A DNA stretch of 61,576 bases, the filler included, from Platydemus manokwari (Eukaryota), in assembly GCA_037951405.1 (NCBI GenBank). It is 5 parts of 5 records of this genome, joined end to end, with 100 filler letters (N's around TTAATTAATTAA, not from the genome) between each part and the next. Parts side by side here need not be neighbours in the genome. Positions count along the whole stretch, not along the records: positions 28,291 to 41,636 come from JBBMOY011753618.1; 4 more parts are not named here. One strand, given 5' to 3'. The notes under the pieces are model-generated. The model worked only from the letters and a program-made list of their open reading frames with translations, made no database searches and was not told where the DNA came from. Every line of letters begins with the position of its first letter. Within the stretch, counting starts at the first letter, position 1. Of this stretch, positions 90 to 46,570 are shown piece after piece. Both the position numbers and the translations under genes were made by a program.

Positions 90-3000
90 ATTTACCTTCA
101 TTCGTTGAAAATAATCAATGCACTAAATGTCACGGACACCAGAATAAAGAATTAATCGTAGACAATAACTACCATAATGATACAGTTGCTGGAAACATCA
201 ATATGGTAATTGACGATCATGATAAATCACCATTTGAAGAAACTACCAACGATACGGAACAAAATTTAGAATTTGTATTATGATTTTGATTTTTATTTTT
301 ATTTCAATTTATCATAGGAGCACAAGTCTGATAATGATTCTGAAAATATCTGTCTGGAGAATCAACATTACAATGAGTTGCTGGTAAGATTTTTTTCTTA
401 TAATCAAATTTTATATATGGTTTTATTATTACTGATTTCATTCATATCTTAATTGTGTTGAGATATTTTCTATTAATAAATTAATCCGATCAAAGAACAA
501 GTCTATTTCCTTAAACAAAACATTTTCCTATAATCTCCATTATATGTCTAATCATGTACTAAAATCTCCAACAATCATAAGATCACCAGGGACTCTTGTT
601 TGTCTGATGATCTTTCTAAAATAAAAATCTCGATGCATATATACAATACGGAATAATACAGGATTTGATTGACTGTTACTTCATTATCAATTTATTCAAA
701 TATCTTTATGGTATTGTGCTAAAAATGTAAATAATATAAACCGTTATGTTTTCATTGAATTTAATAAAACAAATGTTGATTTTAAACACCTGGAAATTTT
801 AATTCTCCGTAAAAATGGTATGAAATACTTGATTTTTAATTAAATAAGATATTTATAAATATGCAGCCAATTGATTGATGTCCTCATAAAGTTGTAATAG
901 ACACTGGATTCAACAAATATCAATTGATTCTTGAGCTAAAGCAAGGTAAAACAATATTCATCAAATATAGACATCCAATTGTTAAAATTGATTGAGATAT
1001 AAATATATTTGTCTTCATGAAATATAAACATAATTTATGAGTCAACAACTAAGAAATATTTACTGATAAATATGAGTTTGAATCTGTCTCTGAAGATTTA
1101 ATGATTTTACATTTTGTCTTTTAACCAATGAGATCATAAACAATATCAAACTTATTTATTAGTTATCGCTAGTTGTTGATATAAACCGTTTGAATGAAAA
1201 CGTTCTTATCAATGCTTGTTGTCAGTTATTTCGAATTAATACTGATTTTTCTATCAAATAAACCACCTACAATTTCAATAAGTAGAGATGATAATCACAC
1301 TTGAATTTTCATTGAAAATTAATATGTGATTTTTCAAATTTTGTAATAAAAAATCACAAAATGAAATTTAACTAAACGCGTGACGTATTTTATAATTGTT
1401 TCAATGTTTTTTGAAAATTATTCTTGAGATCACAATTAATTAATTCAATTAATTTATAATTTAATTAATTAATTAATATATGTAGTCAAATTTAGAAAAC
1501 TTCGTAGAACAGGTTCGTCATAGCTCGTTTCATAAAGCCGATGATGAAGAGTCTGTAAATGAAGAGGATTGTGTTAATCAATCGAAAATAAATGTCCTTG
1601 AAGATGCAGTGCGAAATCTCAGAGAATTGGATATCAATAAAGATTTTGAAAGCCAATATTGGGAAACTGTTCGTTCTAGCAAACCAGAATCGTTTGATAA
1701 TTTCGATAATGAGTAAGAAAGTTACAATTCTAGTAAATTAAATTGATGTTTTAAACATGAATTTACTTATTGCCTTCTACAGCTTTCAAAGATTTAATTC
1801 TCGACTATTATATTTGAAAATGTTCTCTAGGTTTCATCTACTATCATATATAGTTTAGAAAGTTATTAATCATATATTGGTTTAATAATTTATATTAATT
1901 ATGGAAAAGAAATCATAGATAAATATTATAGCATAGTAATACAGTGTAGAGATCCATTCGGAACAACAAACGTTAAAATATTAAAAAGGGGGAAACAAAT
2001 CCATATTAATAAATTATTATTAGGTTATCATTGATTATTTTATTAAATAATAAACCAGAAATTTAAAATAGATAGGAAGGTTTCCGCTAATTCTTTGGCA
2101 ATCAAAATTGACGAGCCGGACCAAAGTAGGTTCTCATTTCAACTCTAAACTTACGATATAATAATATTAATTAAAAAAAAATAATTTAAATTATTTTTCT
2201 ATTCAAATCGAGACTTGTTGCTGAAGGTAACTTAAGTCTGTTAATTTTTCCATGAATAAAATAGTTTGTATTGATTTATTCCACAAAAATAGCGAAAGTG
2301 TCTATCTCAGTGGATTTATTGAAAAATAAGAATATAGTATATCCTCGGTAATTAGTTATGGCAATATAAATTACAAACTCTATTTAGAGGATTATCTCTG
2401 TACTTTATCAGAAATCGAATTTAAGAACTTACTAATAGATTTATAAATAAATGTGTTTTGTGTAAATTATTGATAAATGAGCTTGCGTTTGTTTCCATCA
2501 TTGTCAAATAGATCCAGATCACAACAAGTTTTCAATTTTATATTAAATTTTCCTTGGCTGATTATTTAAAATTTAATAGTTTAGGGTGTCGGTTATTTAC
2601 ACTTATAATTATTCAGATTCAATATTTTGAATTTAATGTCTATTTTTTTTATCAATTTTTATATATAAAATCTTTGTAGATTCCATGGTTCTAGAATATG
2701 CGAAAAATCAAGCCTTGACGCTAATATTCTTCAACATAGAATTAATTATGTTTCGTTGTTCCTTAATAGTTCAACAATATCACCAAAATCTTTCAGTGGC
2801 AACAGTGATAAAAGAAACTCAGTCAGTGAACAAAGTGCATTTATAGAAGAATTAGCTCTTAAGTACTTAAATAAGGCTTCCGCGAAGCTGGAATCTTTGT
2901 ATAAATCTAACAAGCAATATACATGTGATACAACTTACACAAGTCATAATTTTAGCTTGGGTACAGAAGAATATTTTCGTCGAAATAATATTAATCGTAA

Positions 3001-3379
3001 TGGCATTGATAATGTCAATCAAAATAGTGCGTATTTCTCTTCAATTAGATTACCGGATGGTCATTCTTTACCAAGAAGTAAACATTTGATATCGAGTACA
3101 CCGGCTATTCATGGCCAACCGTTGCAAGACAATTGCTTTAAAAAACCTGATAATATTCATCGATACAACGACCATTCTGATTGGTCGTGTGTGAAGATTC
3201 TCGATGGGCTCAAACAACAACCATCGATTTTACCTGTTAAAAATCATGATTCGATTTATTGCTTGTTAGAAAAAAATCGGAATAGTCTCGAAACTGATTC
3301 ACAAAAATATACTTATTCAGAAGAAATGATAAATGTTTTAGATATAGACAAGCTGAAACAATTGCCGAAATATTTGTAG
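90..3379 (+). CDS. STIL: STIL/SIL (Ana2/SAS-5 family) centriole assembly protein, 3' exons (5' end outside window)
   Basis: GT-AG exons 90-274, 318-383, 1486-1712, 2680-3379 splice in frame. Motifs in STIL order: DLPSF, YNELL, LEDAVRNLREL, RINYVSL, STAN-region ELALKYL and FSLGTEEYFRRNNI, C-terminal LDIDKLKQLPKYL* (vertebrate LDVKRLRQLPKLF). Confidence 0.85.
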
Positions 3380-8211: not shown

Positions 8212-8617
8212 ATCAATTGAAGAATCTCCAAACCAAAATTAATAAAAAATAAACCAAATATTTGTGTTCTGAATAGTTCTTTACCTGTCACATCCATGCA
8301 AAACCATCTTTTGTTTTAGAAAATTTCGTCCAATTAATTTTTTGACAACAATCTTTGAAATTTACCTCACCTGCTAGAAGGTTGCAGCATTTTAGCCAAT
8401 TGATAACGGTGAAGTATCTTCACACAAAAGCGGAAGAAGTACATCTTGATAAGTATTTCCTACCTAAAAATTAAACAGTATTTAAAATTAATTAAATTAA
8501 AACAAACAAGATCTAATATAAGTAAATGTTTAAAGCACACTAGATTTGTTGAATACGAGCAACTGAAGAATCTCCACCCCAACTTGAATCTATTGAAGAA
8601 TCTCCCCTAAATTTGTT
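8212..8617 (-). mobile_element. Merlin (IS1016-like) DNA transposon deletion derivative, copy 1
   Basis: Aligns by eye with 23520-24040, shares TTGAAGAATCTC subterminal repeats, and encodes an N-terminal transposase remnant VINWLK..LLA..DCC..KDGFAW. Confidence 0.7.
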
Positions 8618-11780: not shown

Positions 11781-12096
11781 TAATGTGATCTTGCAATCAT
11801 TTTGCAATGTGTTCTGTTTGATTTCATTGTGAATATGTTCTATATTACAATAATATATTTCCTTTAAATCAAAGTTATCATTACAATATGGATTATTATA
11901 TAATTAAAATTATAAGAATATTTTAGGAATTTTGCTATATTATTTTATAAAATTGATTAACGATAAACAGTACATTAATAATAATAATAATAATATTTTT
12001 AACAAGGCAATTTATGATTATGGATTTAGAACTGTACCAAGGAAAATTTGATTCAATTTAGTACGAATTTAATTTTCCATCGATGTCAGAAAGGAT

Positions 12097-13803
12097 ATGA
12101 ATAAAAGACTTCAAAAAGCAAAAGTATTTCGACTTAACACTAAGGAAATCGTAGTCGAACAATTCAAATCTTTCGTGAATTTGAAACAAATGATGATAGA
12201 AAATGATCAACATCTTTGGGATTTTAAAAATAAAATACCTTTGAACTATTCTAAACCAAAAAATGATTCCAATATGGTAAAAAATTATATCAATTTCAAG
12301 CCACCTATTAATCATCATTTTGCTGATGTGTTTTCTGAATCCAGCTTGATGACTTATAAAATCAAAGAGATCTTAGAGAAGAATACTTTCAAAAACATGA
12401 CTAGTGCAGTTCATCAATTTGATAAATCAGATAATGCATATTTCTATGCTCGAAGTCGTTTTATTTATACTCCGTTGAATTATGTTAATAAACACTATGA
12501 ATCTATTTTAAATTCCAGCGAAACTTTAAATGGGGTTAAATTACAGAGATTTGTAAGACAATTTGAAGCATTGAATGGTGTTTTGCACATAAAACCAACG
12601 AAAGTATTTTCTGTAAAGCCTAATTTAAGTCCACCAGAGAATGTCAATATCCAAGAAACGACAGTAACAAAACATTATCGTGAAGTATCCGAAATGGTTT
12701 CCAACATACCATATCAGGTAGCTGAAATCAATATGGGGAATATTTCCAAATCTTCTAATATTTTATATTATAAACAATTTAATTTCAATAAAGATCTCCA
12801 ATATGACAACGGTTTAAATAAAATTCTGGAAAAAGATCAAGACGATAAACTAGTAAACCCTTTAAAGATAGATAGCATAAATACGACAAGCCCTGAGAGC
12901 AGATTATCAATATTAAGCGATGGATCAAATAAGAAATTTTTTTTGACAAAAGAAACTGATATCGTCAATGATGATCTAGTTCTATCAAATGATAATGTGG
13001 AATTAAGCAAAGCAGATCAAAGTACATCAGAGCATAAAACTTTATCAATAAATAAAATATCATTTACAAGTGATTTTAAAATCATTCATCCAGTAAAAAA
13101 AGCACAATCGACCAAAAAAATGGGGAAAAGGCATTATGCTAAAAAATCAAAAAGTGAACCAAGAAAGTTTGTGGAACTAAATGATGAAGATTTAGATTGC
13201 TGTTTGCAACGCATTTCCCAAACCTTTTTTGAAAACATAACGAATTTTGATGAATTCATCGATGGAGAATCAATGATAAATGAATCCAATGATTTCAAAC
13301 TATCTATTATTTATACCGAGTTATATATCTTTCTGTCAAATCAAATATTAGAACGATCTTTCTCTGGAAGTCAAAGATATATCGATAATGAATTGAAAAC
13401 TAAAATTATTAAATATTCTGGTAATTTTGGATTTGTTGATGGAATTTGTATAGAAGATGGACTCCAAGACGACGATTATGATCGCCGTGATTCAGACTCG
13501 ATTACGAGAGAATCATTTAAAGCTTTGTCACATATGTATAATTTAAAAACATTAGTCGGTAAATCAATTTTACTTGACAAAGATGAAGATAAGTCGAGAA
13601 TATCGCACGAAACAATTCTAAAAAATTATATATCAAAGATTCGATCTTATACAACGGAAAGTTCGTCAATGATAAGTTCAGATAATTCACTAGATCCAGT
13701 TGATGTCGAACTGATTAAAGCATTTTCGCAACGAATAACGGATGAACTCACTGAATTATCTAACGATAAAAGTTTGAAGACATGGAATTTTGATAATATC
13801 TAA
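12097..13803 (+). CDS. Hypothetical protein, 568 aa, single long ORF, no recognisable domain
   Basis: 1.7 kb stop-free frame in highly AT-rich DNA is very unlikely by chance. In-frame stop at 12070 upstream; AATAAA near 13867 downstream; S/N/K/D-rich middle. Confidence 0.75.
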   Translation: MNKRLQKAKVFRLNTKEIVVEQFKSFVNLKQMMIENDQHLWDFKNKIPLNYSKPKNDSNMVKNYINFKPPINHHFADVFSESSLMTYKIKEILEKNTFKNMTSAVHQFDKSDNAYFYARSRFIYTPLNYVNKHYESILNSSETLNGVKLQRFVRQFEALNGVLHIKPTKVFSVKPNLSPPENVNIQETTVTKHYREVSEMVSNIPYQVAEINMGNISKSSNILYYKQFNFNKDLQYDNGLNKILEKDQDDKLVNPLKIDSINTTSPESRLSILSDGSNKKFFLTKETDIVNDDLVLSNDNVELSKADQSTSEHKTLSINKISFTSDFKIIHPVKKAQSTKKMGKRHYAKKSKSEPRKFVELNDEDLDCCLQRISQTFFENITNFDEFIDGESMINESNDFKLSIIYTELYIFLSNQILERSFSGSQRYIDNELKTKIIKYSGNFGFVDGICIEDGLQDDDYDRRDSDSITRESFKALSHMYNLKTLVGKSILLDKDEDKSRISHETILKNYISKIRSYTTESSSMISSDNSLDPVDVELIKAFSQRITDELTELSNDKSLKTWNFDNI

Positions 13804-14813: not shown

Positions 14814-14913
14814 NNNNNNNNNNNNNNNNNNNNNNNNNNNNNNNNNNNNNNNNNNNNTTAATTAATTAANNNNNNNNNNNNNNNNNNNNNNNNNNNNNNN
14901 NNNNNNNNNNNNN
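14814..14913. other. Artificial contig linker
   Basis: 44 N + TTAATTAATTAA (stops in all six frames) + 44 N; identical at four places. Confidence 0.97.
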
Positions 14914-23494: not shown

Positions 23495-24064
23495 GGATCA
23501 GTTGAAGAATCTCACGCCCCCACAACATTAAGCACTTGAAAATCTCCACTCATAAATTAATAAAAAAAATAAACAAAATATTAAAATATTTGAGCTTATA
23601 TATGAATTCCATTGGCTTATCGAAGTTCAATGAATGATTAACTGTTCTGTGAGTAAGTCCAAGATTTTCCCAGTTCCTTTAGGATCTCCATTTGTCCTTG
23701 TGAATAATGAGCCTAGGTCGTACAATTGCTTGAATAATGAATAAAAGTGTGTCCGCATCTCTTTTATCCACAGTTTACCTCACTTGCTAAAAGGTTATGG
23801 TGTTTTAACCAATTGATAACGAGTAAAGTATCTTCACACAAAATAGAAAGAAGTACATCTTGAGAAGTATTTCGATCCATGGCTAGAAATTAAAGAGTAT
23901 TTAAAATTAATTAAACTAAAACAAACAAGATTTAATATAAGTAGATGTTTAAAACACAATAGATTAATTGAATATGTGCAAATGAAGAATATCCACACCA
24001 ACTTGAATCAATTGAAGAATCTCTCTCCTAGATTTGTTCAGTGGGGAGATTCTTCAATTGATCC
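23495..24064 (-). mobile_element. Merlin (IS1016-like) DNA transposon deletion derivative, copy 2, both ends present
   Basis: TIRs GGATCAGTTGAAGAATCTC / GAGATTCTTCAATTGATCC; 8-bp TSD AATGTTTC / AAGGTTTC (7/8). Transposase remnants INWLKHHNLL and KRDADTLL.IIQ.IVRP..IIH.D.WRS*....LGLTHRTVNHSLNF. Confidence 0.9.
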
Positions 24065-28190: not shown

Positions 28191-28290
28191 NNNNNNNNNN
28201 NNNNNNNNNNNNNNNNNNNNNNNNNNNNNNNNNNTTAATTAATTAANNNNNNNNNNNNNNNNNNNNNNNNNNNNNNNNNNNNNNNNNNNN
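28191..28290. other. Artificial contig linker
   Basis: 44 N + TTAATTAATTAA + 44 N. Confidence 0.97.
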
Positions 28291-29850: not shown

Positions 29851-31389
29851 CTCAATTTATATTATGTTGAAATAATTATTCTTGTACACCTTCTTGGTTA
29901 CTATTTTTATATGAAAAAAGCCGGGCGGCAGAATAAGATTTTGGCAGATATAGAAATAAATAAAGTAAAATAATATAAAAAAATAGAATATGAAATCAAA
30001 AATATAAAGGACCTATTTTATTAACAAAAATAAGAAGAGTCAAAATAAAAAGCAGAGGTTGTAAGCATGGCGAAAAAAGTTGCGGGTGTTATGTAGGTAA
30101 CCAAATTTAAAAATTTATTATGGTATAAAATCTGAGTGGTGTACATTGGATACACCACAAAAAATAAAACACTGTACTAGTATGGATAATTACCATAACA
30201 GATCAGCCACAGAGAATTATCATTGCCGAATTTGGAAACTAAACGAAGGTTCGAATTTACGGAGTTATATTCTGGGAATTTCACATCAATTTTTCAAATC
30301 TTAACACTTGTCATAATTGCGCGGAGTAAGCTTTATTTGGTATTATATTGTTTTGTCCGTCATCATATAATTACACCATTAATATTTAATAATAATTTAT
30401 CTAATTTCTCTAGTATGGCATTTTCATAATTGCACATTTATAATTTTATGATTAATAGTAACTATCTAAAATCTGCCAAAATCTATCTTCCATATATTGA
30501 CCACTGCCCGTCCGCTTTCGGATTTCGTCGGCTACTTGCTTTGACAACGTGCTGACTATTGATATAAATTCTTTTTGTTATTAATTCAACTTGTGTTATT
30601 TGTTTTTCTAAATAAATTATTTTATAGCATCTGTCTTGTAGTGGATTTTTCGAACACATAGCATACCGATTATCGATAACTAATGTCATTACTTTATTTT
30701 GAACAAGTTAACATAAGAGTTTAAGTAATCATTAAATTTTTATTAACTTTAGAGTACAGCAATCCACCTATTTTAATCGAATTAAGCTTTCTCATTTTAA
30801 TTAAACTAAATCAGTTAGATTATTACCTTCTTTAACCGAGCCTTTAGAATCTTTTAGCAACTTTTCCGATGGCGTGGTCTTCAGACCCGTTATCGACTTC
30901 CCTTCAGAACCAGTATAAGGTTAAAGCGCAGTCAACATATATAATTATAATCCACCACTTTAACCAGACTATTACTTTAATAAAAATAAAAATTATTAAT
31001 ATATAAATATAAATTTATCCTTATTTAAAAGTGAGTTTGAAATTATTTCTTGTCCTTAAGTTTTTGATGAAAATGATGTTTGTTGAATAATATCAAACTC
31101 TAATTACTTTTTTTTGATATTCCAATTTTATTTATGTTTTATAGTCAAACTTTCTAATTATCGAGAAATTACTTAAATAACATTTAAATACACTCGATTA
31201 TAAAAATGGTTTCACAGTTTTGATTTTATGATTAGGCAATCAGAGGCGGTTTTGATTTTACGTTTCTTTTTGTAGAAAAAATTATAAATTTGTTATATTT
31301 TGAAATTGAAATTTTTTTATTATCAAGTTTTTATTCAGGTTCAATCGCTTTATTATTGAAATCGAAGGTTGCAAGCTTTATTTGCCTGT

Positions 31390-31556
31390 ATCTTTTTTAA
31401 ACATTTAAAATATTATAATTAAAATGTATTACGATATTTTGATTTTTTAAGTAATTGGTAAAAAAAAATATAAGCGATCCTCTGATTATTAGCAGTGCAC
31501 TACTTTTTTCGTCGGAAAATAACATAAGCGGCCTCTTATAATAAGGAACAACACGG
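31390..31556. mobile_element. Partial Tc1/pogo-type MITE related to 34092-34486
   Basis: Ends TTATAATAAGGAACAACACGG-TA and shares ATAAGCG motifs with the 34092 element. Confidence 0.55.
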
Positions 31557-32274
31557 TAATATCCAAAATATATTTCATACTACCATTTATAAGTAAGTTC
31601 TTCAAAACAAATATATTAACAAATAAACTGATGTAAACGTGAAAGAAAACACAATCGAAAAAATCATTCAAAGATTTTATGTCTTACTAACTCCTTAGCA
31701 GATAGTAACTAATTGGCCATGTTTTAGAACAGTTATCTAGTGTTGTATTTTCTAGTTGTGTTTTTAAAATGCTATTTCATTTGTGATTCTCATTGACTGG
31801 TATTATGTGTGCCACTATCGAAAATAGTTCTCGTTTGATTTTTGTGGTTAATTTGCTTATGTTTTTTATATTCTCGACACCGTGGTCTAAAAACCATTGA
31901 AAATAACTCAAAATTATTATTAATTTTTCAAGGCACAAAATTTCCAGATATTTACTTCGAGTCTATATAATCTTTATTTTATTGAAAATGGATTTCGTAA
32001 CAATGATTAACTGAAATAAAACTAAAAGAAAGGTTAGTTTGTTATGATATTACGAGAAGTTTAAATTAAGTAACAAAAGATAGTAAGATTTTTTTATTAG
32101 GATTTTTTTTATAAATTGCTACTAAAAGTTAAGAAAAAATGGTGTGGGTTAGTTTGGGGGCGCTAAGTAATAACTATTCTGAAAAGGGTGCGGTTCGCCA
32201 GAAAAGTTTGGGAATCAGTGGTCTAAATAATAATACATTCTCATATTGATTAATTACTTTGATAAATATTTATA

Positions 32275-32420
32275 AATCCGGATTAACCATCAATTTTAAA
32301 CCTAAAATAAACAAAAACCAATTTTAAATGCAAAATCCGGATTAAACAATTTTATTAACAAGGAATTATGGGTAAAATTCAGGGGACTTAAAAAAAATCC
32401 GGATTAACGGAATCCGGTGA
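32275..32420. repeat. Clustered AAATCCGGATTAA motifs, probable transposon subterminal repeats
   Basis: Three full copies plus one partial AATCCGG in ~145 bp. Confidence 0.6.
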
Positions 32421-33229
32421 CTTTAACGACAAAATGAGCTGATAATTAATAAGCGAGTGATTGGACGAAATCCAAACCACTTTTCATTTAATTGTTCATC
32501 AAAATTATCGTAATAAAATGCATTAAAATTTTTGAAATAGTGATAAAATTAACTTTACTTTGTTTATGATTTCTGGTAGAAAATAAACTCAAATTTCGGT
32601 CGATAGTAATTGGTTTTACATAGTGGTACTCTTCTAATAATAAAAGTGCAAAACTGTGAACGTTTTCTATAAATAATTATGAGGTCTTATTGTGTTGAAT
32701 AATTGTAAGTTTTTTCGGATTTTCTATAATTTCTTTTATACTAATTATCATTTTCCTTTTATAACTAATTACCATTTTTTGTTGTTTTTATATTTTATCC
32801 ATACTGTTTTTGGATTTTCAGTTTCTTTGTATCCTAATTTTAATATCTTTTAATTATTTATTGGTGTGACCACACCTTAGTCCTTTTTTGTATTCCTTTA
32901 CATTCCTTTGTATTCCGTTGTATTTCATTAGATTTGAAATGTAAGTCTAAAGATCTGAAACAAAAGGTAGTTAGTAACGGAAAATGGGCATTTTGACGCG
33001 TTGACCGAGCAGCTGCACCCGGACATTTTGCTTCAATAATTCTAATATTTAAGTTTTCTTTCACCTCGTGTAATTTTTCGAATATCTATTCGATTTTAAT
33101 TTTGGATTTAAACTCATGGAAAGCTGTAAAAAATCTCGGAAGACCAGAATTTTATGGTTATAATATCACATAAATTTATTTTTACTTATCTTTGTTATAA
33201 ATATACCATGAGAAATAGATAGTTCCCTA

Positions 33230-33900
33230 GCAAGTATTTTTACCTTAAAAAGTGGTGAGATACTGGAACCATCTTACATAATATTATTAACTTTGTTGTG
33301 ATGGTTTTGTTCAGTCATTAGGAAGTTTTCTTCGACTCGAAATTTTTCTTCAGGCTGTGTATCTTATTTCTCTACTGAATCTTCTGATTCATTTTTCTGG
33401 GATTGTTTCGAAAACTTGATAGATTTGTTTATTGGATTCGTAGAGTGAATTTGCATTCCCGTCTTCGATTTCATTAAAACCTATTTCCTCTTTATGAATT
33501 TTGGGATGATCTTGTCATCCATATTCCATAGTTTTGTATATCTCGAGAATGTCGTATGCTCTTTGGCATATAGAAGATCTCTTGCAGGATGATTGATTTT
33601 GAGTCAATTTTTCTTTTAATTTATTTAGCCGCTGAAGGCTTTGAACTGCCGTCTTACTTCTGACGAAAAACTAAGGAAGATTTGATTTTAAGTAATGCAA
33701 ATTTTTGTTGCTTTGTAAATTAATGTCACTGAATTTCAAACTCGAGCAGCGAAATGCTATTAAATTTACAGAGCGCATTGTATATTGCAGGATTGTAGAG
33801 GTATAAACCAATTGCCAACATCAATCGTAAATGGATAGTCCTTTAGTGGCAAGATTTCCAACGATGATATCTCGAGAATCTGGGGGTTCACTTTAGAGTG
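33230..33900 (-). mobile_element. Tyrosine-recombinase relic (DIRS/Ngaro-like)
   Basis: Frameshifted pieces in YR order: LRLMLAIG, SLKFSDINL, FVRSKT, IHSLKK, then RW. Confidence 0.45.
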
Positions 33901-34091
33901 AGATTTTCATTTTATTAACATATCTATAACATTATCTATGACTTGAAAAAAAATTCCAATTCTCGAACAATATCTGCTGATTAAATTTTAGTAAACTATT
34001 GGCAATTTTTATCAGATGTTATTAACTGTTGGTTGCATTACCATATTCTTACTTTCGTTTCCTCAAAAATAGTTATCATTAATATCTACTA

Positions 34092-34486
34092 CCGTGTTTT
34101 TCATATTGTAAGCGGTCGCTTATATTTTTTTACCGATTACTTAAAAATCATAAAAAATCATAAATTATTTTTATTATAATATTTAAATGTTTAAAAAAGA
34201 TTTTGAACACTAAATTAATTCCTGTGAATCAAGTTTATCTTTGATAAGTGGTCCTAATTTCTCATTTTTTTGCCATGAAGTTTTCTTCTAATGAAGCTGA
34301 TTTGTCCAGATAGGTAGAATTCAAAGCTTTTTTGGCATAGTTATCATTAATTTTAACCAGCCATTACTAACCCATATTTATAGTTTTTATTTATATAGTA
34401 TTTATATTTACTACCGCTTTTATTCGGAGGATCGCTTATTTTTTTTTCTTATATTTTGGATACCGCTTATAATAGGAAAAACACGG
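34092..34486. mobile_element. Tc1/pogo(Tc2)-type MITE
   Basis: TIRs CCGTGTTTTTC / GAAAAACACGG flanked by TA on both sides. Confidence 0.8.
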
Positions 34487-34705
34487 TAGTAATCATAATT
34501 TTTGGAAATTTTATATTTGAATATTTATTTAGAAGTTTTGAGTTTTTACTAGATTCTTTTGAATTATGTAAATTTATATTTTTAGTACGTAATGATGTTT
34601 TATTAATTTTGAGCTTTTTATAAATATTTGAATATTAGAATAATCAATATCATTGTTCGTAGTTTCTAAAGAACCTTCATTATTATTATTATTGGTACTA
34701 CCGGG

Positions 34706-35517
34706 TGTAGAACACAACAGTTATCGTTAATAAACTGACTTCAAAAACAAAATAAAGTTGCACAAAGTTATATTTAAATAACAATATACAACCTTAATTT
34801 ACACCAACAAGAGCCTAGCCCCTCTTAAAGTTTCGTCAAATAAAATAAAACACGGATCAGGTCCCCTTCACTATCTGAAATACTGACCGTGGAGCTACTC
34901 CTGGCCGTTACTACAGTTACCTGCGTGCGTAAACGGATTATTGGCGATCAAAGATATTCGGGAAACACTGTCCACGAATATCACACGATTAAATTAATCT
35001 ACCTCTACTTGTTACCAATATTCTAACTGTTAATTCCGGTTCTCTTGCTAATCAGTAAAATTCTCTTTGGAATATTCTGGCCTCCTTGTTAATCAAAAAA
35101 ATTTTCTTTTGCAAATTCTGTTAATCGACTGTTGATTACCACCACTTTTACAGTTGCATAACAACACTTGCAGCAAAATTTCCTACCACCGAGTTGACAT
35201 GCACAGTAAACTCCTATACTTAGATCAATATCACCAGAAATTGATCAATAATTACCTTCAAAGAAATTTGGTTACTAAATATTTATTTAATTCAATAAAA
35301 CAATACATATTTTTCTAATAATAATTTTAAATTCTTTATTTATTCGTATTTTTGTTTAATAATTTTTTTCTCATTAATAATTTTATTTTAAAATTATTTT
35401 TCAACTTATTATTTATTTTAAGCAAAATCAATTAATTTTTTTATCTTATTTTTAAACTAACTTTAACTATTCACTTTTAAACTATCTTTTTTATATTTTT
35501 ACATTATGTGCTCTTCA
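34706..35517 (-). repeat. 3' LTR of the Gypsy element
   Basis: Minus-strand TGAAGAGCACA...TGTGTTCTACA (terminal inverted repeat 9/11), directly preceded by a polypurine tract at 35518-35528. Confidence 0.75.
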
Positions 35518-35603
35518 TTTGCCTCCTCAAAATTTTTGAGATTTCCTAATCTCAAAACAATAAAAAAAACTACAAAATACATTTATTAAATCACAAATCA
35601 AAA

Positions 35604-36895
35604 TTATAGTTCGATGTCATCACTCCTGATGTCTGGGGGTTGATTGAGGTCGAACTACGTCTTCGCCTCTTTCCATTTCCTCTTCTTTGCTGGGGTTGAT
35701 CGACTTGCTTGTGAGCTTCCTGGAACCAATAATGCTCCTCTTCTCTCTAGTTCTTCTATAACTTCCTCAAGGGATTGGACCTTTTCTTTTATCTCTGCTG
35801 TTCTATTGGCTTGTGGTTGTTCTTGCGGGCTATTGGCATCTCCTCCTCCCCCACCTTTTGTCTTTCACCTTTTCTCGAGTGTGCCATTCTTACTTAACTT
35901 TGAACTTCAAATTGTCGTAGTCAGTGCATTTCGTATATTTTCATGCGATCTCGTCTTCATCCAGAATGTCTATAGAGTCTGGTGTATCCCATAACTTGCT
36001 AGCCTTTGACGAGTAAATATTTCATTACTCCTTTTCACGCCATCTTCCACGAATATTGGCGCATTGACAGCTCTTGAACGTCAATTGAATCGCTGTGTGA
36101 TTCTCAAAGCTATCAGTTCTTCCAGTACTCTATGACCGATAACTATTGTTCCTCGTAATATTCTATTCACTTCTTTGGTCGACAGTTCATCTTTCTTGCT
36201 ATGAACTGTTTCTTCTATGAGCTTATGTTGGGGTGTTTTGTATTACAAAACCATTGCTGAGAGTAATAACATTGGAGTATATCAATTCTCCTTGATAATC
36301 CAATATATTTACTGTTATCGGAACAAACTCACTGGCAACTTCCGGCTATGCTAATGATACATGGACAAATCGCACTCTTCTCCTTCCTTCCTCGTCATCT
36401 TCATCCTTAGAAAGGATTTGTAGTTTTCTAATTGGAGGCAGTTATTACTCATCTCTTCAAATTTTTCCTTTGACTGACGAGGCATCTTTCCCCTATCAGG
36501 TTGGTTTTTGTCGAATATGGTCAACGACCACATTCCTTTTTTTTCATGCAAGTTCCTAATAGCAATCTTTTTGAGATCCGCACTGGATCCCTCGATCTTA
36601 ACAGTCACATAAGGTATTGTTTTCCACCCATCTCGTGGATGGCAACCTCAATTGCTGTGAGGACGTTGTCGATCTCGATCTCTTCGTGGCCCTCAATTAG
36701 TCCTCCATTGGCCAATTCAGTTTCTTGATGTTCGTTTCGTAGAAACATCCTACGATTCTCCACTACCTTCTCCTTTAGGTAGTTGAGTATGTATTGAACT
36801 CTAGTGATATTAATTTGTCTCCAATGGTTTACATTCATAAATGCTTCGACTCGATTGTACAAGATTCGAGTCTTCACTGATTTTCTGACAGTCAT
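35604..36895 (-). pseudogene. Gypsy accessory ORF B: unknown N-terminal region plus DEDDh (ISG20/REX4-like) exonuclease-fold relic
   Basis: 36380-35930 reads VRFVHVSLA*..PITVNILDYQGELIYSNVIT..FVIQNT / HKLIEE..KEVNRILRGTIVIGHRVLEELIALRI..DILDEDEIA, matching REX4/ISG20 spacing (VSIVD.xG.V.YD.; EV..LLKG.ILVGH...DL..L; EDA.A). Frameshifted. Confidence 0.6.
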
Positions 36896-37023
36896 TTAGC
36901 TTTTGTGTGTTTCTGTAAATTCTCTTGATTTCTTGTTTCTTGGGTATTTTGGGTAGCGCTTTTAGAATTAATTGTAGTTTGTTCATTTTAAAATATAAAT
37001 AATCACTAATATCTGTTTATACT

Positions 37024-38057
37024 TTATTTATAAAGAAACCTATACAATTTTAATTTATACACTAAATACACTATGTGCTGTGTTTTTAACACTGCGTATC
37101 TCGGGTTCTCTCTCTCTTGTCTTGGCATATGCGGTGCCGTTGGTAGCTGACTACAATTTTTGTTGCTATCATTAACATTTCTATCAGGATTACAGTAGTT
37201 ATCATTGCAAATTCTATTATTATTATTAACTGTTCTACGGATCCTGCAAATCCCTTTTTCCTGCTTTGATTCGTTTTCTATTTTTGGTCCGGTACCCATT
37301 CTCTTCAAACGAGTTGGAATGCCAAAAAACTGACTCCGTAGTGACTTTATTTCTCATTTTTCTTCTGTTCCTTTAGACAATCATGGCTTTCATCAATCTC
37401 CTGAATGACCGCCAATCTCTGGTTGTCGTAGGTTTCATTGTCGTAATCGCAGATAATAACGGCGGTATTTTGTCAATGGGTTTGAAATTGAATCCTAGAA
37501 CTGTTATCTCTACTTCTTCATTTTGTTCAACCAAAAATCTGGGTAATTCATTATTCCACCGATTATACCATATATAGGTTTTTATAGGCCTTATAACTTT
37601 CAGTGTCATATCGTATCTCGTATTTTTTTCGTCCAATATCACTACAATATTCACCATTTGAATCTGTATGCATAATTTCGCTCTGGATTCCAAATCCAAA
37701 TTACATTGTATTTAGACACATGTATTTTTACCGTTTCTCATTTCGACTCTGTGATTCTGTTTCGTTTTCCGTGTACGGTCACTTTCGCTGAAAACTACTA
37801 CTTCGAACCAGTAGAATCGTGACTATCTCATATTATTAAAAGAAATCTTTTTCCTGTATTTCCTAAGTAAACTTCGGCTCTGTTTCCTGCTCTTAATAGT
37901 AATGCCATTGACACAAGCGGATCACTGTCGCAATCACAATGCACAGTGATTTTGTGCGTCTGTTTTTCAAAATTAAACTCAGGCATTTTCAGAATTTACT
38001 CTAAATCTTCTTTTGCTTCTGCAGTCAGCATCAATGTGCAATGGGATCCAAAATCAT
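37024..38057 (-). pseudogene. Gypsy accessory ORF A: putative type I membrane (env-position) protein
   Basis: Frameshifted: signal-like ..LMLTAEA, beta-rich region with ISFNNMR*SRFYWFEVVV, Thr/Pro stalk, hydrophobic LIIIIEFAMITTVILIEMLMIA (~37165-37230), then LPTAP..NPRYAVL in the adjacent frame. Confidence 0.5.
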
Positions 38058-38129
38058 TTTTGTTACTTCACTTCTTTTCTCGTAGTTACTGTTGCCACTG
38101 TTTTTGTCCTAGAGCATAGCGCATGTTGG

Positions 38130-38965
38130 CTAGGTTCTATCTCTGTTACTCGTTTACATCTGTATGCACGGACTATCAATGGTCCTTTCTTTTCAATTGT
38201 AAGTTAGTAGGCATCACTTTATTCAGTGTGCAGGCCTTTCTCTGCAACTTTGGAGAGATTTAGTGGTTGCCGGCTATCTACTAATACCGTTCCCCTACCT
38301 TGAACTGGCGAGGCTTTGCTTTTTTATCAAATGCTTCTTTATAGCTCTCCTGGCTATATTTGATTTGTAATCCGGCTCTTCACAAGGTGTTTGCATTCTC
38401 TCTTACATCTCCGTTTTGTAGTCCTTTTCGTCCATATATTGACATGAGGGCTGAACATACTCCATATCTATGGGCATGTTATTATCCTTTAAATACATTA
38501 GATAAAACGATGTCTCCTTTGTCATACTGTGCACCGTGTTCTTGTATGTATATAGGCACGATTCTATGTATCAATATATCTAAATTTCTTTGATTTGTGC
38601 TCGTATAAGAAGCTAACATATATTTTAAAGTATTATTAAATCTTTCTACCATGCCATCTGTCTGAGGTCTAATTGGTGATTCAACTTCATTACGTGGATT
38701 TCCCCAAATATATTGCTCAGGAAGTCCTTTTTTCTGTCTGTCAATATTTTCCCTGGTGCTCCATATCGGAACACTATCCCCTCCACGAATATCTATGTAA
38801 TCGTTGCTGCTTTATGGTTTGGTATCGCGAAAGCTTCTGGCCAACGCGCGAGATAATTAAAAAATACTAAAATGAATCTGTTTCCTTTAGTTGTCTCCGG
38901 CAATGGTCCCATAATATCCATTGTGAATTCCATTGGTTTTGGAATTATATCTATTGGCTGTAGTG
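38130..38965 (-). pseudogene. Gypsy integrase (rve core and C-terminal part), disrupted
   Basis: MDIMGPLPETTKGNRFILV; PEAFAIPNHKAATI; FRYGAPGKILTD; PQTDGMVERFNNTLKYML. Confidence 0.92.
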
Positions 38966-39663
38966 TGTTATATTGTTAAATATATCATAACAAATTTGAC
39001 ATTTTTATTCAAATATTTTTGTTATTATTTGTATTACAATTTTTTTATTTGATTTTCCACGTAATAATAATGTTTTATAAATATTGTTAAATAAGTTTTT
39101 GGTTTTGTATTTTAACTGGCTCTTAAGGGGCTTCAATAACGGGTATGAAGACCTCACTGTTGGTAAATTAAAGATTAGTATTATTAAATCAGTTGATGAC
39201 TTAGTCCTTCTTGATGACACTCAACACTGAACTGGAACGTTGTAATATTAAATTTGTCAATCAATCTCCTCAACCCAATTGACTGATATACTATAATGCA
39301 GTTTAAATTATTACGCTTAAATTATTACGTGAGTTAATTTTTATGAGTTAATTTTTATCGAACTCAAATAAGCATATACGTTTTTAAGAAATAAAACGTA
39401 ACAGTTGAAAAATTTGAACACAAAAAATGATGCAAATAGCCGGCATGTTGCCTCAGCAAGTAACCAGCAGGGTCCGAAGCGGACGGAGGAACGATCTGCA
39501 GAATAAAGAAGAGACTTTTTGGCAAAATTAAAATTAAATATTATTCATATAATTTATCAACTGTTACTAATAACAAATTATTAATAATGTGAAAAAAAAA
39601 TTCATGTGAATTATTTATTGTTAATGATGAATTAAACGTAACTATTACTAAAATGAAGTTGAG

Positions 39664-40240
39664 TGTGATGACACGAAATGAAATATCTCTTACTCAAATA
39701 TTGAATCAAAATGTTATCTTCCTATGAATAATCCTCTTAATGGTTGATTCGAGTAAGTATTTCCAAAATATCCTCTTGATCCAAATTCTTTGATCGATAC
39801 AACAATCCACTTCCAAATCAATTTATAATTCCGATAATATCACTAATGGTTGATTCGAGTGAGTGTTTTACAAAATCTCTTTTTGATTCAAATTTTTTGA
39901 TCGATATAACAATCCGCTTCAATTTATAATTCCGTTAAAATCCCTATGTGGTGTGATGTTGTGGTTGTTTGTAGTGGCTGACTCTGTTTTCAGCTCGGTA
40001 TTTATATCTCACTGTTCCGGCCTCCGACATTCCGTTAATATTTATCTGATTACAAATGTATTATATAATGTACTTTGATTAATATATTTTATTATTTATT
40101 TGTTATAACTTATTAGATATCAGTTTTTATTCTTTAATTCTTTATAAATATTTTCTTCATTATTTATTCTTATTATTTTTATTTTATTATTTATAATGTG
40201 CCAACCTCTCCTCCCCACTTTCTTCCCCCGCTCCGTTACA
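39664..40240 (-). mobile_element. Probable solo LTR containing a ~106-bp tandem duplication
   Basis: Minus strand TGTAACG...CATCACA with a TATAAA near 40000; duplicated unit starts at 39738 and 39844. No TSD found. Confidence 0.5.
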
Positions 40241-40266
40241 TTACATAATTTAATCACTGTTTATGA

Positions 40267-40638
40267 ATGTCAACATCACAAAAGTTTATAAAGATTATTC
40301 AACAATGATACACAAAAGTTTTATAAGAATCATTCATTTACAAATACCAATATAACAATAAAGATTTTTTACACAAGAGTAATATAATTTTCAATATCAA
40401 TAGTTATTAATTGTCAAATAATCAATGCGACTCGACTTAAGCTAGATTGGATTGGGGATTCGGTTTCGGCTAAGTTGATGCGTCCATAGTCAAAGGCATT
40501 CTGTTCTTCGAAAGGCTTTATTTTGTATTATTCTATGCGTGCTACTTATGTATATTTTTTATGTACATGTACACTCGGTGGTGAATATAATTATATATAT
40601 ATATATTGTGGTGTAAGCATTGGGTGGGGATCCCAACA
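40267..40638 (-). mobile_element. LTR-like fragment
   Basis: Minus strand TGTTGGGATC...GTTGACA; related to 29512 copy; no TSD found. Confidence 0.45.
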
Positions 40639-41098
40639 ATATCAGCTGTTGGAGTTAATGTTACTGTTGGAATATACTACGTTTTTAGATTTTCCATAAT
40701 ATTTAAAGTCTGAATGTTTTTAAAAGTTTCATCATTAATCTAGCATTTTGGCTTTGTCAGTTTTATGTTATTATTTTTAATATAGTTTTGTTGGGGTTTT
40801 GGCCAAACTAGTTACTTAAAAACAATTGATTTACATTGAAAAATGTGTGCATGACAGTACGTATGAAATGTGTATTAATTTTTACTGTATTAATTTTTAT
40901 TTTAATCAATGTGTATTTTTATGACCCTCGCATTCTGGAGCGAAGACCTGTTTAAAATATTTATATTTATAATAATCATTATTTATATACGTAAAATAAT
41001 TTTTCCAATAAAATCCCCAATTGAAAACCTGTCGAAATCCTCTAAAATAATAAATTGATTTATAAAATATTAACACGCAATGAGACATCGCGCATTAA

Positions 41099-41348
41099 CA
41101 GCGAAAAATTAATTATCATCTGTTTCTGCGCATGAAAATTCTGTAGCAGAATAAAATATATCACTCGATTAAATTTAATAGAGAGATATTTTCTCTGCCT
41201 AATAAATTTTTTCAGAGAGAATTTCTCTCACTTTAAAATTAAATTTAGTCGCAGATAATATCTGCGAGTGATTCACTGCTTATAAGGCAGTGATTTCAAT
41301 CAACATCGACACTATTAGACACAATTTTTTGGACATAATTCTTCGCTG
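41099..41348. mobile_element. MITE with multiple internal palindromes, TTAA-flanked
   Basis: TTAA-CAGCGAAAAATTA...TAATTCTTCGCTG-TTAA; internal TCGCAGAT/ATCTGCGA and CACTGCTT/AGGCAGTG stems. Confidence 0.7.
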
Positions 41349-41636
41349 TTAATTGATGTTACTATCGCTGCCTGACATTGCATCAATTAGAGAAGAACCA
41401 TCGTTTAACTTCGACGCACTCAAGAAAATCGTCTGGTGCAGAAGATTAATTGTTCCTGTATATGCCCGGCATTTGCTGAAGACCCAAAGTAAGACCATAC
41501 CTGTAAAATCATAATCAATATTATATACCGTATTTCGCTTTACCGTCATACTATAGAGATGTGTCTCAAAACATCTTAAAGGTAAAGGTTCGGCTTCTAG
41601 AGTTGAAGTTTGCAACCGTTTTCTTTCCAGAAGTTG

Positions 41637-41736
41637 NNNNNNNNNNNNNNNNNNNNNNNNNNNNNNNNNNNNNNNNNNNNTTAATTAATTAANNNNNNNN
41701 NNNNNNNNNNNNNNNNNNNNNNNNNNNNNNNNNNNN
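41637..41736. other. Artificial contig linker
   Basis: 44 N + TTAATTAATTAA + 44 N. Confidence 0.97.
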
Positions 41737-43288: not shown

Positions 43289-46200
43289 ATGTCAGAAAGT
43301 AAATACAGAAAAGGAAGACAAAATTCCTTTTATGAACAGCAGCAACCACAACAACAACATCCAATCTTGGCAGTGAAAAATCGATTTTGGTTGAAGGAAT
43401 TAATAAAAGAAGCCATTAAAAACAGCACATTTAGTTCGAAATTAATTGAAGAATATTATTTAGAAATATCAATTCCATACGTAAAGAATGTTTTAAGAGG
43501 AAGTCTCCTTCTGCTTATTACGTATTTATATCTCACAATTTACTGGACATCAACATACAATCCAATGAAAACATATACATTGCTCGGTCAAATTTCGACG
43601 TTATACATCCTTCTGATGTGTTTTACATGGACGCTATTCATCGAGACAAACAGAAACCATGTCAGGATATCATTAGTTGCCTTGCTAACTGTAGTTTTAC
43701 AGAATATGCTTACAAGTTATGACATCAACAGTAAAATGGAGATCAATTACAGTCCAATATTGCAAATGATAATCCTGGTTTTTAATTTCATTCCTTTGAA
43801 TTTTGCTGCCGCCATTTCCATATCACTGCTGACCATTTGTTTCCTTATATTAGCCACAATGATGAGAATCTCTATTTTAAAAATAACTGACAAGCGAGTT
43901 CTTCAAAGTAACACAAGCATTTTCAAAGCATTAACAGACAACCCGGTGTTGCCAAGTGATTTCGATATGATAAGTTATGTTGGAGGACAAGTTTTCCTTT
44001 GGATCGCAGCGTACCTAGCATCATTTTATATGTTCACGTGTAATCGACTGTGGAGACAATCAGCATTTGTTACTCTCGGCGAAAATGTGCAGGCTAAAAG
44101 AAAATGTAAGCACGCAATGAAAGGTCAATTAAGATGGATTGAAGCGATAATGCCGGCAGTAGTTAAGGATGAATACTGGTCTCATAGTCTCGATGTTAAA
44201 GCAAATAAATGGGTCTATATTAAGGCATTTGAAAATGTTAGTATTTTGTTTGCTGACATTGTTGGATTCACGAACATGAGTTCCAATAAAACGGCGCCTC
44301 AAGTTGTGACATTGCTGAATGACTTATTCAATAGATTCGACGAATTATGTAATATCACGAATTGCGAGAAATTAGGAACTCTAGGTGATTGTTACTACTG
44401 TGTTGCTGGATGTCCTATTCCTAGACCAGATCATGCAGTATCTTGCACAGAAATGGGTTTAGGTATGTGTCGCATTATTAAACAGTTCAATAACGATCAT
44501 AAAGAAAATGTCAATATGAGAGTTGGTATTCACACCGGTCGGGTTAATGCTGCAATTATAGGAAAACAGAGATTTCGATTCGATGTATTTTCCAATGATG
44601 TCATCATCGCCAATACAATGGAATCCAGCGGAAAACCAGGCCAAGTTCATATTTCCCAATCGGTTTACGAACTAATTCGACATGCATACAATGTGGAACC
44701 GGGAGAGGATTTGGAAGTCAAACGTGAAGAAGATCATGGAATTGCAGGAACAATATTGAAAAAATCGGCTATAAAAACATATTTCGTAGATCCAAATTCA
44801 TCTCATTTAAAAAAGAAAGGAGAAAAGTTTGGTAAAAAGGGAGAATTTCATGTGATGGATGTCAGAACTGACAATGAAGACTCGGATTCGGAATCGGATT
44901 TTGGTGATGATAGAGATGATAGTTCTGATATGCAACAGGATCGAATAAGCTTTCATAAAAAATCGTATATGGCCAGAATCGATGAGGAGGTCGCGTTTAT
45001 TGAGACATTGCGCTACGATCCCGATCAACAAGTGATTTGTTTCTATGAACCTCCAATAAATATTATAACTCTAATGTTTTATGATAAAGAAGTCGAATGG
45101 CACTTTCAAAACCACACTATCGATCATGTACAAAGCTTGTCATTATATTCAGCTAAGTTGGCACCGATAGTTGAATGTATTGTATCAATAGTTTGCTTGA
45201 TCTTCATTTGTTGTGCTGTGATCCTGTTCTTTCATTTGGATATGGATTCTGTAAAAAACAGTAATTCCGTATTAGGCCTGTTTGGTTTAACTATATCTCT
45301 GACAATCATAGAATTTTGGAAAGCATCAACATATCTAAGTCTGTTATCAAAGAAATTCGAAAAGGTTTTCTACTCATTACTATCTCATCAATTCTATAGA
45401 TCAATTTTTTGTATCTACATGACAATGCTCCCCAGCATTATGTGTTTTACGATGCTTTACAATTGTCATCGATATACGAATGAATATTATTTTCAAGCTC
45501 GATATTTTAGTCTGAATCTTTTCTCTCTTGTAATCGGATCATTGTTTGTTTCGGCTTGGTCGTGGGTGAAAATTGTCGCTTTAGGGATGAATTTCACACA
45601 GTCAATACTTTTTGGAGTATTTCTCACTTGTACATCAGATGACAACAAACAACCTTTAATGCCTTTTTATACATGTTTAGGGGAAATGAAACTTAGTCGA
45701 AGAATATATAGTGATCTTTTGCTGAGAGAGTATTTCTATCAGTATTTATTTACCTTCATAATTCTCATGGCATTGATACGGGAGCGAGAAAGAAATTTGA
45801 GGATTTGGTTTTACGTTTCCAGGGAAGCTGAAATCGGTAGAGAAGAAGCATTGAGAGCAATGCAAAGTTCTCAGGAACTTTTGTATAATATCATACCAAA
45901 ATATGTTTTCGAATATGTCCGACAAAAAGGTGGCGAAAATTTAGAGTTTACAAGCTTCAATTATGCTGTAGCTATACCTAAGGCGGCTGTTGTTTTTGCA
46001 TGCATTAGCAATTTCTTTTCGAAATACTACCGAGAAGACTACAAAGGCGGAGGGAATGCCTTGAAATTACTGCACGATATCATCACAAAATTCGACCAGA
46101 TTCTCATGAATCGAGAATACAAAGATGTGGAGAAAATCAAAACAATAAATGATTGTTACATGTTGGCATCGGGTCTCAATATGTCTGAAGTGGAATTGAA

Positions 46201-46570
46201 TGCAAACAAACAAGAGCATTTGAAAGCTTTGATGAATTACGCTTTCGAGATGCAGAAAATTCTCGAGAATTTCAATGAATTGTACATAATTGGCACTGAT
46301 AAATTTGAGATCAAAATTGGTTACAATTTCGGTCCAGTCACAGCAGGTATTATTGGATCGACAAAACCAATGTATGATATTTGGGGTGACACAGTAAATG
46401 TGTCGAGTAGAATGTATTCAACAGGAAAACCGGGAGAAATCCAAACACCACATTACGTTGCTGATGAGTTAAAGAATGATTTTGTATTTAAGTACAGGGG
46501 TATTATTTTCGTCAAGGGAAAAGGAGATATGCAGACCTATTTATGTTTACATCCAATCAAGAAAAAGTAA
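43289..46570 (+). CDS. ADCY9: Membrane adenylate cyclase, type 9-like, intronless CDS (1093 aa)
   Basis: TM block-C1a-TM block-C2a. C1a SILFADIVGFTNMSS and CEKLGTLGDCYY (both metal Asp), RFDVFSNDV; C2a VEKIKT and YDIWGDTVNVSSRM (K, D, N, R for ATP use). TLGDCYY and SNDV forms point to AC9. Confidence 0.95.
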   Translation: MSESKYRKGRQNSFYEQQQPQQQHPILAVKNRFWLKELIKEAIKNSTFSSKLIEEYYLEISIPYVKNVLRGSLLLLITYLYLTIYWTSTYNPMKTYTLLGQISTLYILLMCFTWTLFIETNRNHVRISLVALLTVVLQNMLTSYDINSKMEINYSPILQMIILVFNFIPLNFAAAISISLLTICFLILATMMRISILKITDKRVLQSNTSIFKALTDNPVLPSDFDMISYVGGQVFLWIAAYLASFYMFTCNRLWRQSAFVTLGENVQAKRKCKHAMKGQLRWIEAIMPAVVKDEYWSHSLDVKANKWVYIKAFENVSILFADIVGFTNMSSNKTAPQVVTLLNDLFNRFDELCNITNCEKLGTLGDCYYCVAGCPIPRPDHAVSCTEMGLGMCRIIKQFNNDHKENVNMRVGIHTGRVNAAIIGKQRFRFDVFSNDVIIANTMESSGKPGQVHISQSVYELIRHAYNVEPGEDLEVKREEDHGIAGTILKKSAIKTYFVDPNSSHLKKKGEKFGKKGEFHVMDVRTDNEDSDSESDFGDDRDDSSDMQQDRISFHKKSYMARIDEEVAFIETLRYDPDQQVICFYEPPINIITLMFYDKEVEWHFQNHTIDHVQSLSLYSAKLAPIVECIVSIVCLIFICCAVILFFHLDMDSVKNSNSVLGLFGLTISLTIIEFWKASTYLSLLSKKFEKVFYSLLSHQFYRSIFCIYMTMLPSIMCFTMLYNCHRYTNEYYFQARYFSLNLFSLVIGSLFVSAWSWVKIVALGMNFTQSILFGVFLTCTSDDNKQPLMPFYTCLGEMKLSRRIYSDLLLREYFYQYLFTFIILMALIRERERNLRIWFYVSREAEIGREEALRAMQSSQELLYNIIPKYVFEYVRQKGGENLEFTSFNYAVAIPKAAVVFACISNFFSKYYREDYKGGGNALKLLHDIITKFDQILMNREYKDVEKIKTINDCYMLASGLNMSEVELNANKQEHLKALMNYAFEMQKILENFNELYIIGTDKFEIKIGYNFGPVTAGIIGSTKPMYDIWGDTVNVSSRMYSTGKPGEIQTPHYVADELKNDFVFKYRGIIFVKGKGDMQTYLCLHPIKKK

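Follow-up and report, generated by a model that had tools for sequence, protein, structure and literature searches.

Background

Capture of a DEDD-type 3'-5' exonuclease by LTR retrotransposons is already on record. DEDDy exonuclease ORF3s with intact residues are carried by the Juno and Vesta LTR retrotransposons of bdelloid rotifers and by Athena/Terminon (PMC5408684); they are also cited in the accessible parts of PMC6431247 and PMC6338049. ORF3s are typically expressed separately (PMC5408684). KolobokD (DEDDh) and Dada (DEDDy) are further mobile elements with captured DEDD exonucleases, but both are DNA transposons; according to the available portions of the two sources, the KolobokD domains resemble exuperantia, TREX and ERI1 (PMC9587614), and those of Dada retain the complete set of four acidic residues (PMC3706591). 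DEDD cargo has so far been found in LTR elements of rotifers and in certain DNA transposons, with no function shown. The DEDDh group includes ISG20, REX4, TREX1 and RNase T (PMC9157404, in the part available), and the catalytic residues of ISG20 are given as Asp11, Glu13, Asp94, His149 and Asp154 in the accessible text of PMC9157404 and PMC10085690. Maelstrom and EXD1 have a DEDD fold that lacks the acidic site and reportedly keep RNA binding (available sections of PMC2628886; PMC5408684).

The window analysed here is a stretch of 61,576 nucleotides from Platydemus manokwari. It contains a broken accessory gene behind a gypsy-type integrase. With modest confidence, this gene is read as encoding a REX4/ISG20-type domain that was nuclease-dead before the copy decayed, and that served as an RNA binder, not a cutter. 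As in the bdelloid ORF3s, a DEDD 3'-5' exonuclease domain appears to form a 3' accessory gene behind pol in an invertebrate-type LTR element, and Glu stands at the third acidic position (DEED; PMC5408684). The bdelloid domains are RNase D/Rrp6/mut-7-like DEDDy with the invariant residues intact, whereas the window domain is REX4/ISG20-like DEDDh, seemingly without the ExoI and ExoIII residues, and sits in a longer frame with a further unassigned frame upstream. All DEDD matches in the PDB, in every search, were DEDDh proteins, and the acidic set is not intact; on these PDB comparisons the window domain differs from the bdelloid DEDDy type. The likeness to ISG20, ISG20L2 and REX4 (PDB 1wlj, 7yw5) extends over ISG20 residues 30-131 by way of an intermediate protein, P0004, with a TM score of 0.79 between predicted models. 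Unlike these proteins, the window domain is carried on a repeat, and none of the ISG20 residues Asp11, Glu13, Asp94, His149 and Asp154 is matched in the window or P0004 (ExoI and ExoIII by extrapolation); no feature links it to the vertebrate interferon-induced paralogue in preference to REX4. Maelstrom and EXD1 are host piRNA factors of other DEDD branches, whereas the window domain is element-borne. The aligned parts of the window and P0004 do not contain the Cys/His set of Maelstrom (P0004 has no cysteine), and no Maelstrom match was returned by Pfam, PDB or Atlas searches of P0004.

The earlier note had held that capture of antiviral ISG20 by a retroelement would be noteworthy; DEDD capture in LTR retrotransposons is already published (PMC5408684). 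No REX4/ISG20-like or nuclease-dead DEDD cargo of an LTR retrotransposon was found in the literature searched, which was that outside Repbase, subscription journals and supplements, and a nuclease-dead DEDDh version may be new.

Location and features of the locus

The window is joined from separate contigs by N44-TTAATTAATTAA-N44 linkers at 14814-14913, 28191-28290, 41637-41736 and 52497-52596, and neighbours across a linker are not genuine. GC content is 21-31% in most 1-kb bins. The exonuclease-like DNA lies within the contig piece 28291-41636. All four peptides on which the fold had been proposed are present, on the minus strand and spread over two frames: FVHVS at 36369, VNILDYQGELIYSNVIT at 36312 and DILDEDEIA at 35970 share one frame, and KEVNRILRGTIVIGHRVLEELIAL at 36176 is in a second. 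A decayed gypsy-type integrase lies on this strand as well, about 2 kb upstream of them.

Homology and predicted fold

P0003, the part of the window between 36429 and 36085 in which one stop and one frameshift were rendered as X, gave no DEDD family in Pfam, where the sole entry was PurS (E 0.062), no match in the PDB at E<=10, and none of 224 candidates in a word search among proteins of 201-2000 residues. A direct profile match, whose absence the earlier note had named as refuting the fold, is thus not obtained from the window piece alone, and the link runs through P0004. This protein was the single one at E<=0.001 (E 6.7e-4) in a HMMER scan of one frame of 36647-35601 against 1.84 billion representatives. 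P0004 is a natural, stop-free protein of 168 residues from a 593-nt ENA contig, and shares 38% identity with P0003 across 77 residues.

A frameshift-aware local alignment of P0004 with 35700-36500 placed its residues 6-117 (112 residues) on 36324-35999 with a score of 131; 30 shuffled proteins scored 30.2 on average (sd 4.4, maximum 41), and 20 other stretches of the window scored 24-39. By tblastn, P0004 residues 6-26 match block A (36258..36345, minus strand), which contains VNILDYQGELIYSNVIT and corresponds to strands 2-3, with 52% identity over 21 residues. Residues 18-117 match block B (35996..36242, minus strand), which carries the ExoII motif behind a frameshift near 36260-36243, with 33% identity over 100 residues (E 4e-9 within the window). 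Block B includes Gly-His at 36137-36132, a Glu codon at 36119-36117 at the Asp94 position, and one in-frame stop near 36083. The presumed first strand, with the ExoI position, is placed at 36346..36381 (minus strand) by ungapped extrapolation from ISG20 Leu30 = P0004 Ile12 = window 36306. A further stretch, PDSIDILDEDEIA (35944..35982, minus strand), aligns with P0004 150-162 and is likely the tail behind the ExoIII helix, less likely ExoIII itself.

Searched alone against the PDB, P0004 matched ISG20 (E 2.3e-4), ISG20L2 (9.9e-4) and, weakly, SDN1 (0.19), so that all three matches at E<=10 are DEDDh enzymes. The similarity of the window and P0004 spans ISG20 30-131 and takes in the Tyr-Arg-Thr and Gly-His motifs. 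A profile of P0004 with blocks A and B matched ISG20L2 (E 2.3e-6) and ISG20 (9.2e-4); three of its four matches are DEDDh enzymes, the fourth being an unrelated nitrile hydratase (0.0066), and ISG20L2 outscored ISG20 in both profile searches. RNase_T (PF00929) was not reached when P0004 was searched against Pfam. The Atlas model of P0004 has a pTM of 0.75. Its ten listed structural neighbours are all clusters with RNase_T members (TM 0.71-0.80), REX4-like clusters reach TM 0.77-0.80 over about 150 residues, and every eukaryotic neighbour that carries a specific name is REX4-like. The Atlas feature search also returned RNase_T clusters at 0.81-0.88, to be read as leads only. AlphaFold, run on a three-row alignment of P0004, gave a pLDDT of 34.5.

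By these alignments and models, which lead to the family indirectly through P0004, the locus very likely encodes a REX4/ISG20-like DEDDh fold, as had been proposed. The further suggestion that vertebrate antiviral ISG20 was captured goes beyond the data, which reach only the wider REX4/ISG20/ISG20L2 family: ISG20 and ISG20L2 rank first in the PDB because these are the two that it contains, and the wider Atlas names REX4. The simplest reading of the donor is a host REX4-like gene, presumably captured long ago.

Only two homologues are known, P0004 and P0005, each on a contig of less than 700 nt. P0005 is a partial relative, 82% identical to P0004; it matches P0004 over only 36% of its length and has unrelated flanks, a pattern suggestive of a broken repeat copy. 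When longer relatives were sought by profile, none of 7999 candidates reached E<=10 and no full-length intact ORF3 protein emerged, which is weak evidence. Loci searches gave nothing in metagenome or viral contigs, and the 10 tblastn matches of P0004 in phages (five exonuclease/polymerase III epsilon, three DNA ligase, two unnamed; E 3-4) are not significant.

Active-site positions

ExoII is the motif that is directly aligned. ISG20 Asp94 corresponds to Gln76 in P0004, to Gln in P0005 and to Glu in the window, and the reading of Glu for Asp is confirmed, as codon 36119-36117 sits at Asp94 through two alignments. For ExoI, the peptide FVHVS would place His (36363-36361) at the Asp11 position and Ser (36357-36355) at the Glu13 position. 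The substitution is presumptive, its register coming from an ungapped extension that runs upstream for 17-19 residues past the end of the aligned part, outside every alignment; P0004 itself starts behind the ExoI motif. The presumed strand shows an alternating hydrophobic pattern, and behind it is an in-frame stop at 36348-36346. A neighbouring frame and an upstream acidic run were considered as other places for ExoI and dropped, as neither has a hydrophobic strand ahead of an Asp.

ExoIII would be represented in P0004 by Phe132 at the His149 position and Tyr137 at the Asp154 position, on ungapped extension from ISG20 131 = P0004 114. In the window, DILDEDEIA had been taken for ExoIII; the peptide exists, and its assignment is doubtful. 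The distance from ExoII to its Asp residues is about 53-55 codons, compared with 60 in ISG20, and the best alignment of the stretch is to P0004 150-162, in the tail that follows the presumed ExoIII helix, with a score of 31 (p 0.012-0.015 in a 150-nt space and 0.04-0.052 in 400 nt, 5000 shuffles each). Because this match to the P0004 tail (PDSIDILDEDEIA) begins only about 6 codons from the equivalent of P0004 Ala117, where P0004 has 33 residues, the window copy seems to lack about 27 codons, the ExoIII helix among them. Among the RNA-contact residues of ISG20, as defined in the available part of PMC10085690, Arg53 appears as Lys and His89 is kept, and Asp90, His93 and Arg127 are changed. Deletion of ExoIII abolishes RNA binding in ISG20 (PMC9157404, accessible text), and for this reason the window copy itself is surely dead.

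An alternative is that intact copies of the element specify an active 3'-5' exonuclease of DEDDh (or DEED) type, which would trim the ends of RNA or cDNA in retrotransposition; in that case the odd residues would be decay or a wrong register and DILDEDEIA the true ExoIII. ExoI and ExoIII are indeed not directly aligned, DILDEDEIA is within about 5-7 codons of the ISG20 spacing, and in the bdelloid ORF3s the catalytic residues are preserved, Glu occupying the third position (PMC5408684). The match of DILDEDEIA to the P0004 tail argues the other way, as do the Gln at ExoII in both homologues and, by extrapolation, the absence of His and Asp from the ExoIII positions in P0004, which is free of stops. 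An active enzyme in the intact element is considered unlikely. Were intact copies active, the locus would be one more independent capture, of modest significance.

Probable catalytic loss before decay

The exonuclease-like copy contains several stops and frameshifts, as does the integrase, which would suit an enzyme that was active until the copy decayed. The chance that neutral change hits all three testable acidic codons is, at 5-10% divergence, 0.002-0.011 and, at 15%, 0.033, a post hoc calculation that presupposes the ExoI register; three such decay changes are thus improbable, which tells against activity up to decay. By hand count over the aligned core, ISG20 and P0004 have 19 residues in common, 11 of which are kept in the window; the other eight comprise four conservative changes, two radical changes and two positions at the break. 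The window is only 33-38% identical to P0004, yet the structural Gly, Tyr, His and Leu positions are retained over 112 residues.

Differences in other copies point the same way, as a weak hint. Among the 40 of 1058 differences that are listed, each accounting for roughly 98% of the depth or more, three fall within 36337-36357: one lies within the Ser codon and is not acidic, and none is in the His codon or the stop. As far as these sequences go, other copies would share a non-acidic ExoI and perhaps also the stop. Against activity, this sole listed difference in an ExoI codon weighs little, given that 40 of 1058 are listed. The 12 of 179 indels and 15 of 114 joints that are listed include none in 35900-36400, and hence are silent on the missing helix.

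The earlier note had left a choice between decay after insertion and a pseudo-nuclease. Decay as the sole cause fits less well; a pseudo-nuclease that predates decay fits better because two independent natural homologues have no Asp at ExoII and the uninterrupted P0004 apparently has neither the His nor the Asp of ExoIII. In our judgement catalysis was probably lost before the copy decayed, because of the Gln at ExoII in both homologues together with the hint from other copies. Two points run counter to this: the genomic context of P0004 and P0005 is not known to be a retroelement, and Glu at the ExoII position is found in bdelloid ORF3s that are thought to be active (DEED; PMC5408684).

It is also conceivable that a host REX4-like fragment was captured once, was of no use to the element and was amplified while it drifted. 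No intact copy was seen, and the stop behind the ExoI strand is absent from the listed near-fixed differences, so that many copies may share it. Retention of the structural positions over 112 residues at 33-38% identity speaks instead for long purifying selection after the change of the catalytic site, and a useless passenger is regarded as improbable.

Probable host element

The integrase remnant (38150..39005, minus strand) consists of a CxxC remnant near 39000, a core, and GPL at the GPY/F position near 38180. The matches to Pfam rve (E 8.6e-4) and rve_3 (E 0.0067-0.011) both fall short of the curated cut-offs, and by its integrase motifs the remnant is presumably of Ty3/gypsy type. The copy is truncated upstream, near 39000-39100, and at most one LTR is possible. 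Reverse transcriptase, RNase H and gag were not found in the contig piece, six-frame scans of 39200-41636 and 32000-35600 being without a family, and no second LTR copy, primer site or purine tract of at least 9 bases with 3 G was detected.

Between the integrase and the exonuclease-like gene lies a broken frame (37240..38019, minus strand, two frames), seen as long low-stop blocks in repeated DNA. Neither block has a Pfam match, and the block 37660-38019 has no PDB or phage match either. An env reading of this frame and a Sina/TRAF-like reading were both considered and found no support in these searches.

The N-terminal part of ORF3 (36420..36895, minus strand) is made up of two blocks without a stop, one of 92 and one of 67 codons, or about 160 codons together. 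It has no Pfam match below E 0.07, and its first block has no Atlas match. A second, tandem DEDD-like repeat was considered for this part and dropped, since it shows no similarity to the exonuclease alignment. The N-terminal and exonuclease-like parts presumably form one gene. The likely C-terminal tail (35610..35861, minus strand), delimited by reading of the sequence, contains a Gly run, a short heptad-like acidic segment and a basic KKRKWK cluster that resembles a nuclear localisation signal, the tail roles being putative; it has no Pfam match below E 0.08. Downstream is a repeated non-coding 3' part (34700..35600), a candidate for 3' UTR and LTR, with a summed contig depth of 206-1178.

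Summed contig depth, which is not copy number, is 344 and 424 over the exonuclease-like domain, 209-878 over 36481-38919, 44.8 over the tail and 17 in the flank bin 33771-34041; contigs identical to the window locus have a depth of 9-17. The 4828 contig pieces on 33500-41600, a tally that takes in other repeats of this region too, divide into 401 at >=99%, 1133 at 95-99%, 1831 at 90-95% and 1463 at <90% identity. All 11 bins of 35500-38799 have a GC content of 0.33-0.43 and a minus-strand purine share of 0.58-0.63. One diverged contig of 1640 nt lies on 37139-37277 and 37460-37615, and joints of equal depth tie in 36529-36682; it stops short of both the exonuclease domain and the integrase core. 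None of the listed pieces (8 of 5105) joins the exonuclease domain to the integrase in another copy, and no inverted repeats were found around the exonuclease-like stretch.

The exonuclease-like gene very probably belongs to the retroelement; the placement made in the earlier note is borne out by the shared strand with the integrase, the continuous composition and the repeated DNA. The opposing view is that a separate repeat or host gene family merely adjoins the integrase remnant. DNA transposons can carry DEDDh domains (KolobokD; PMC9587614, in the portion available), the context of P0004 and P0005 offers no link to pol, and the ends of the element are not marked by an LTR pair, a primer site or a polypurine tract. 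A mere neighbour is hard to reconcile with a common strand, a composition unbroken from 35500 to 38800, similar depth throughout and the lack of inverted repeats, or with the second, diverged contig that links ORF3 N-terminal DNA to the post-integrase frame; this explanation is given little credence.

Proposed role

In the preferred reading, an element-borne RNA binder, a single ORF3 gene of about 430 codons (36895-35610) would join the N-terminal part, the nuclease-dead domain and the basic tail, and the metal-binding site would already have been lost in the living element. The intact element would express ORF3 as a separate 3' gene. The product, probably nuclear, would bind RNA ends of the element transcript or of intermediates without cutting them, and once bound may shield the element RNA against host 3'-5' exonucleases or small-RNA trimming. 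Shielding is favoured as the use because of the analogy with Maelstrom and EXD1 (PMC5408684; PMC2628886, available sections), and by this analogy the role is possible, though somewhat short of probable.

A wider reading is more speculative and must be called doubtful. An invertebrate gypsy-type lineage would have kept a captured REX4-like pseudo-nuclease under selection as a counter-defence RNA-end binder, active against 3'-5' decay or piRNA trimming. Such a capture would be independent of the DEDDy cargo in rotifer elements and would mimic host pseudo-nucleases. To our knowledge few retrotransposon-encoded counter-defence proteins are known in animals. If a second DEDD branch was indeed kept after catalytic loss, the gain to the element would be RNA-end binding, not trimming, and P0004 provides a natural, stop-free protein for testing this.

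Neighbouring features

Several other features were observed in the window. A MITE-like element at 34087-34491 has 30-nt inverted repeats that are 93% complementary, and a high contig depth; related pieces occur near 31444-31496. An inverted pair of 53 nt (30862-30914 / 39115-39167) is 75% complementary, its second arm lying just upstream of the truncated end of the integrase remnant. A unit of about 106 nt occurs twice in 39738-39946, with 85-92% identity across the portions that match, and 40817-41600 is a very abundant repeat (summed contig depth 16,000-81,000) without a protein family match. A repeat common to two contigs is found at 8361-8604 and 23774-24023 with 83-90% identity. Open frames of 576 and 236 residues at 12073-13803 and 2669-3379, both on the plus strand, have no Pfam match. 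An intact frame at 43289-46570 (plus strand) encodes an adenylate cyclase of 1093 residues with two catalytic domains (Pfam Guanylate_cyc, E 5.6e-101).
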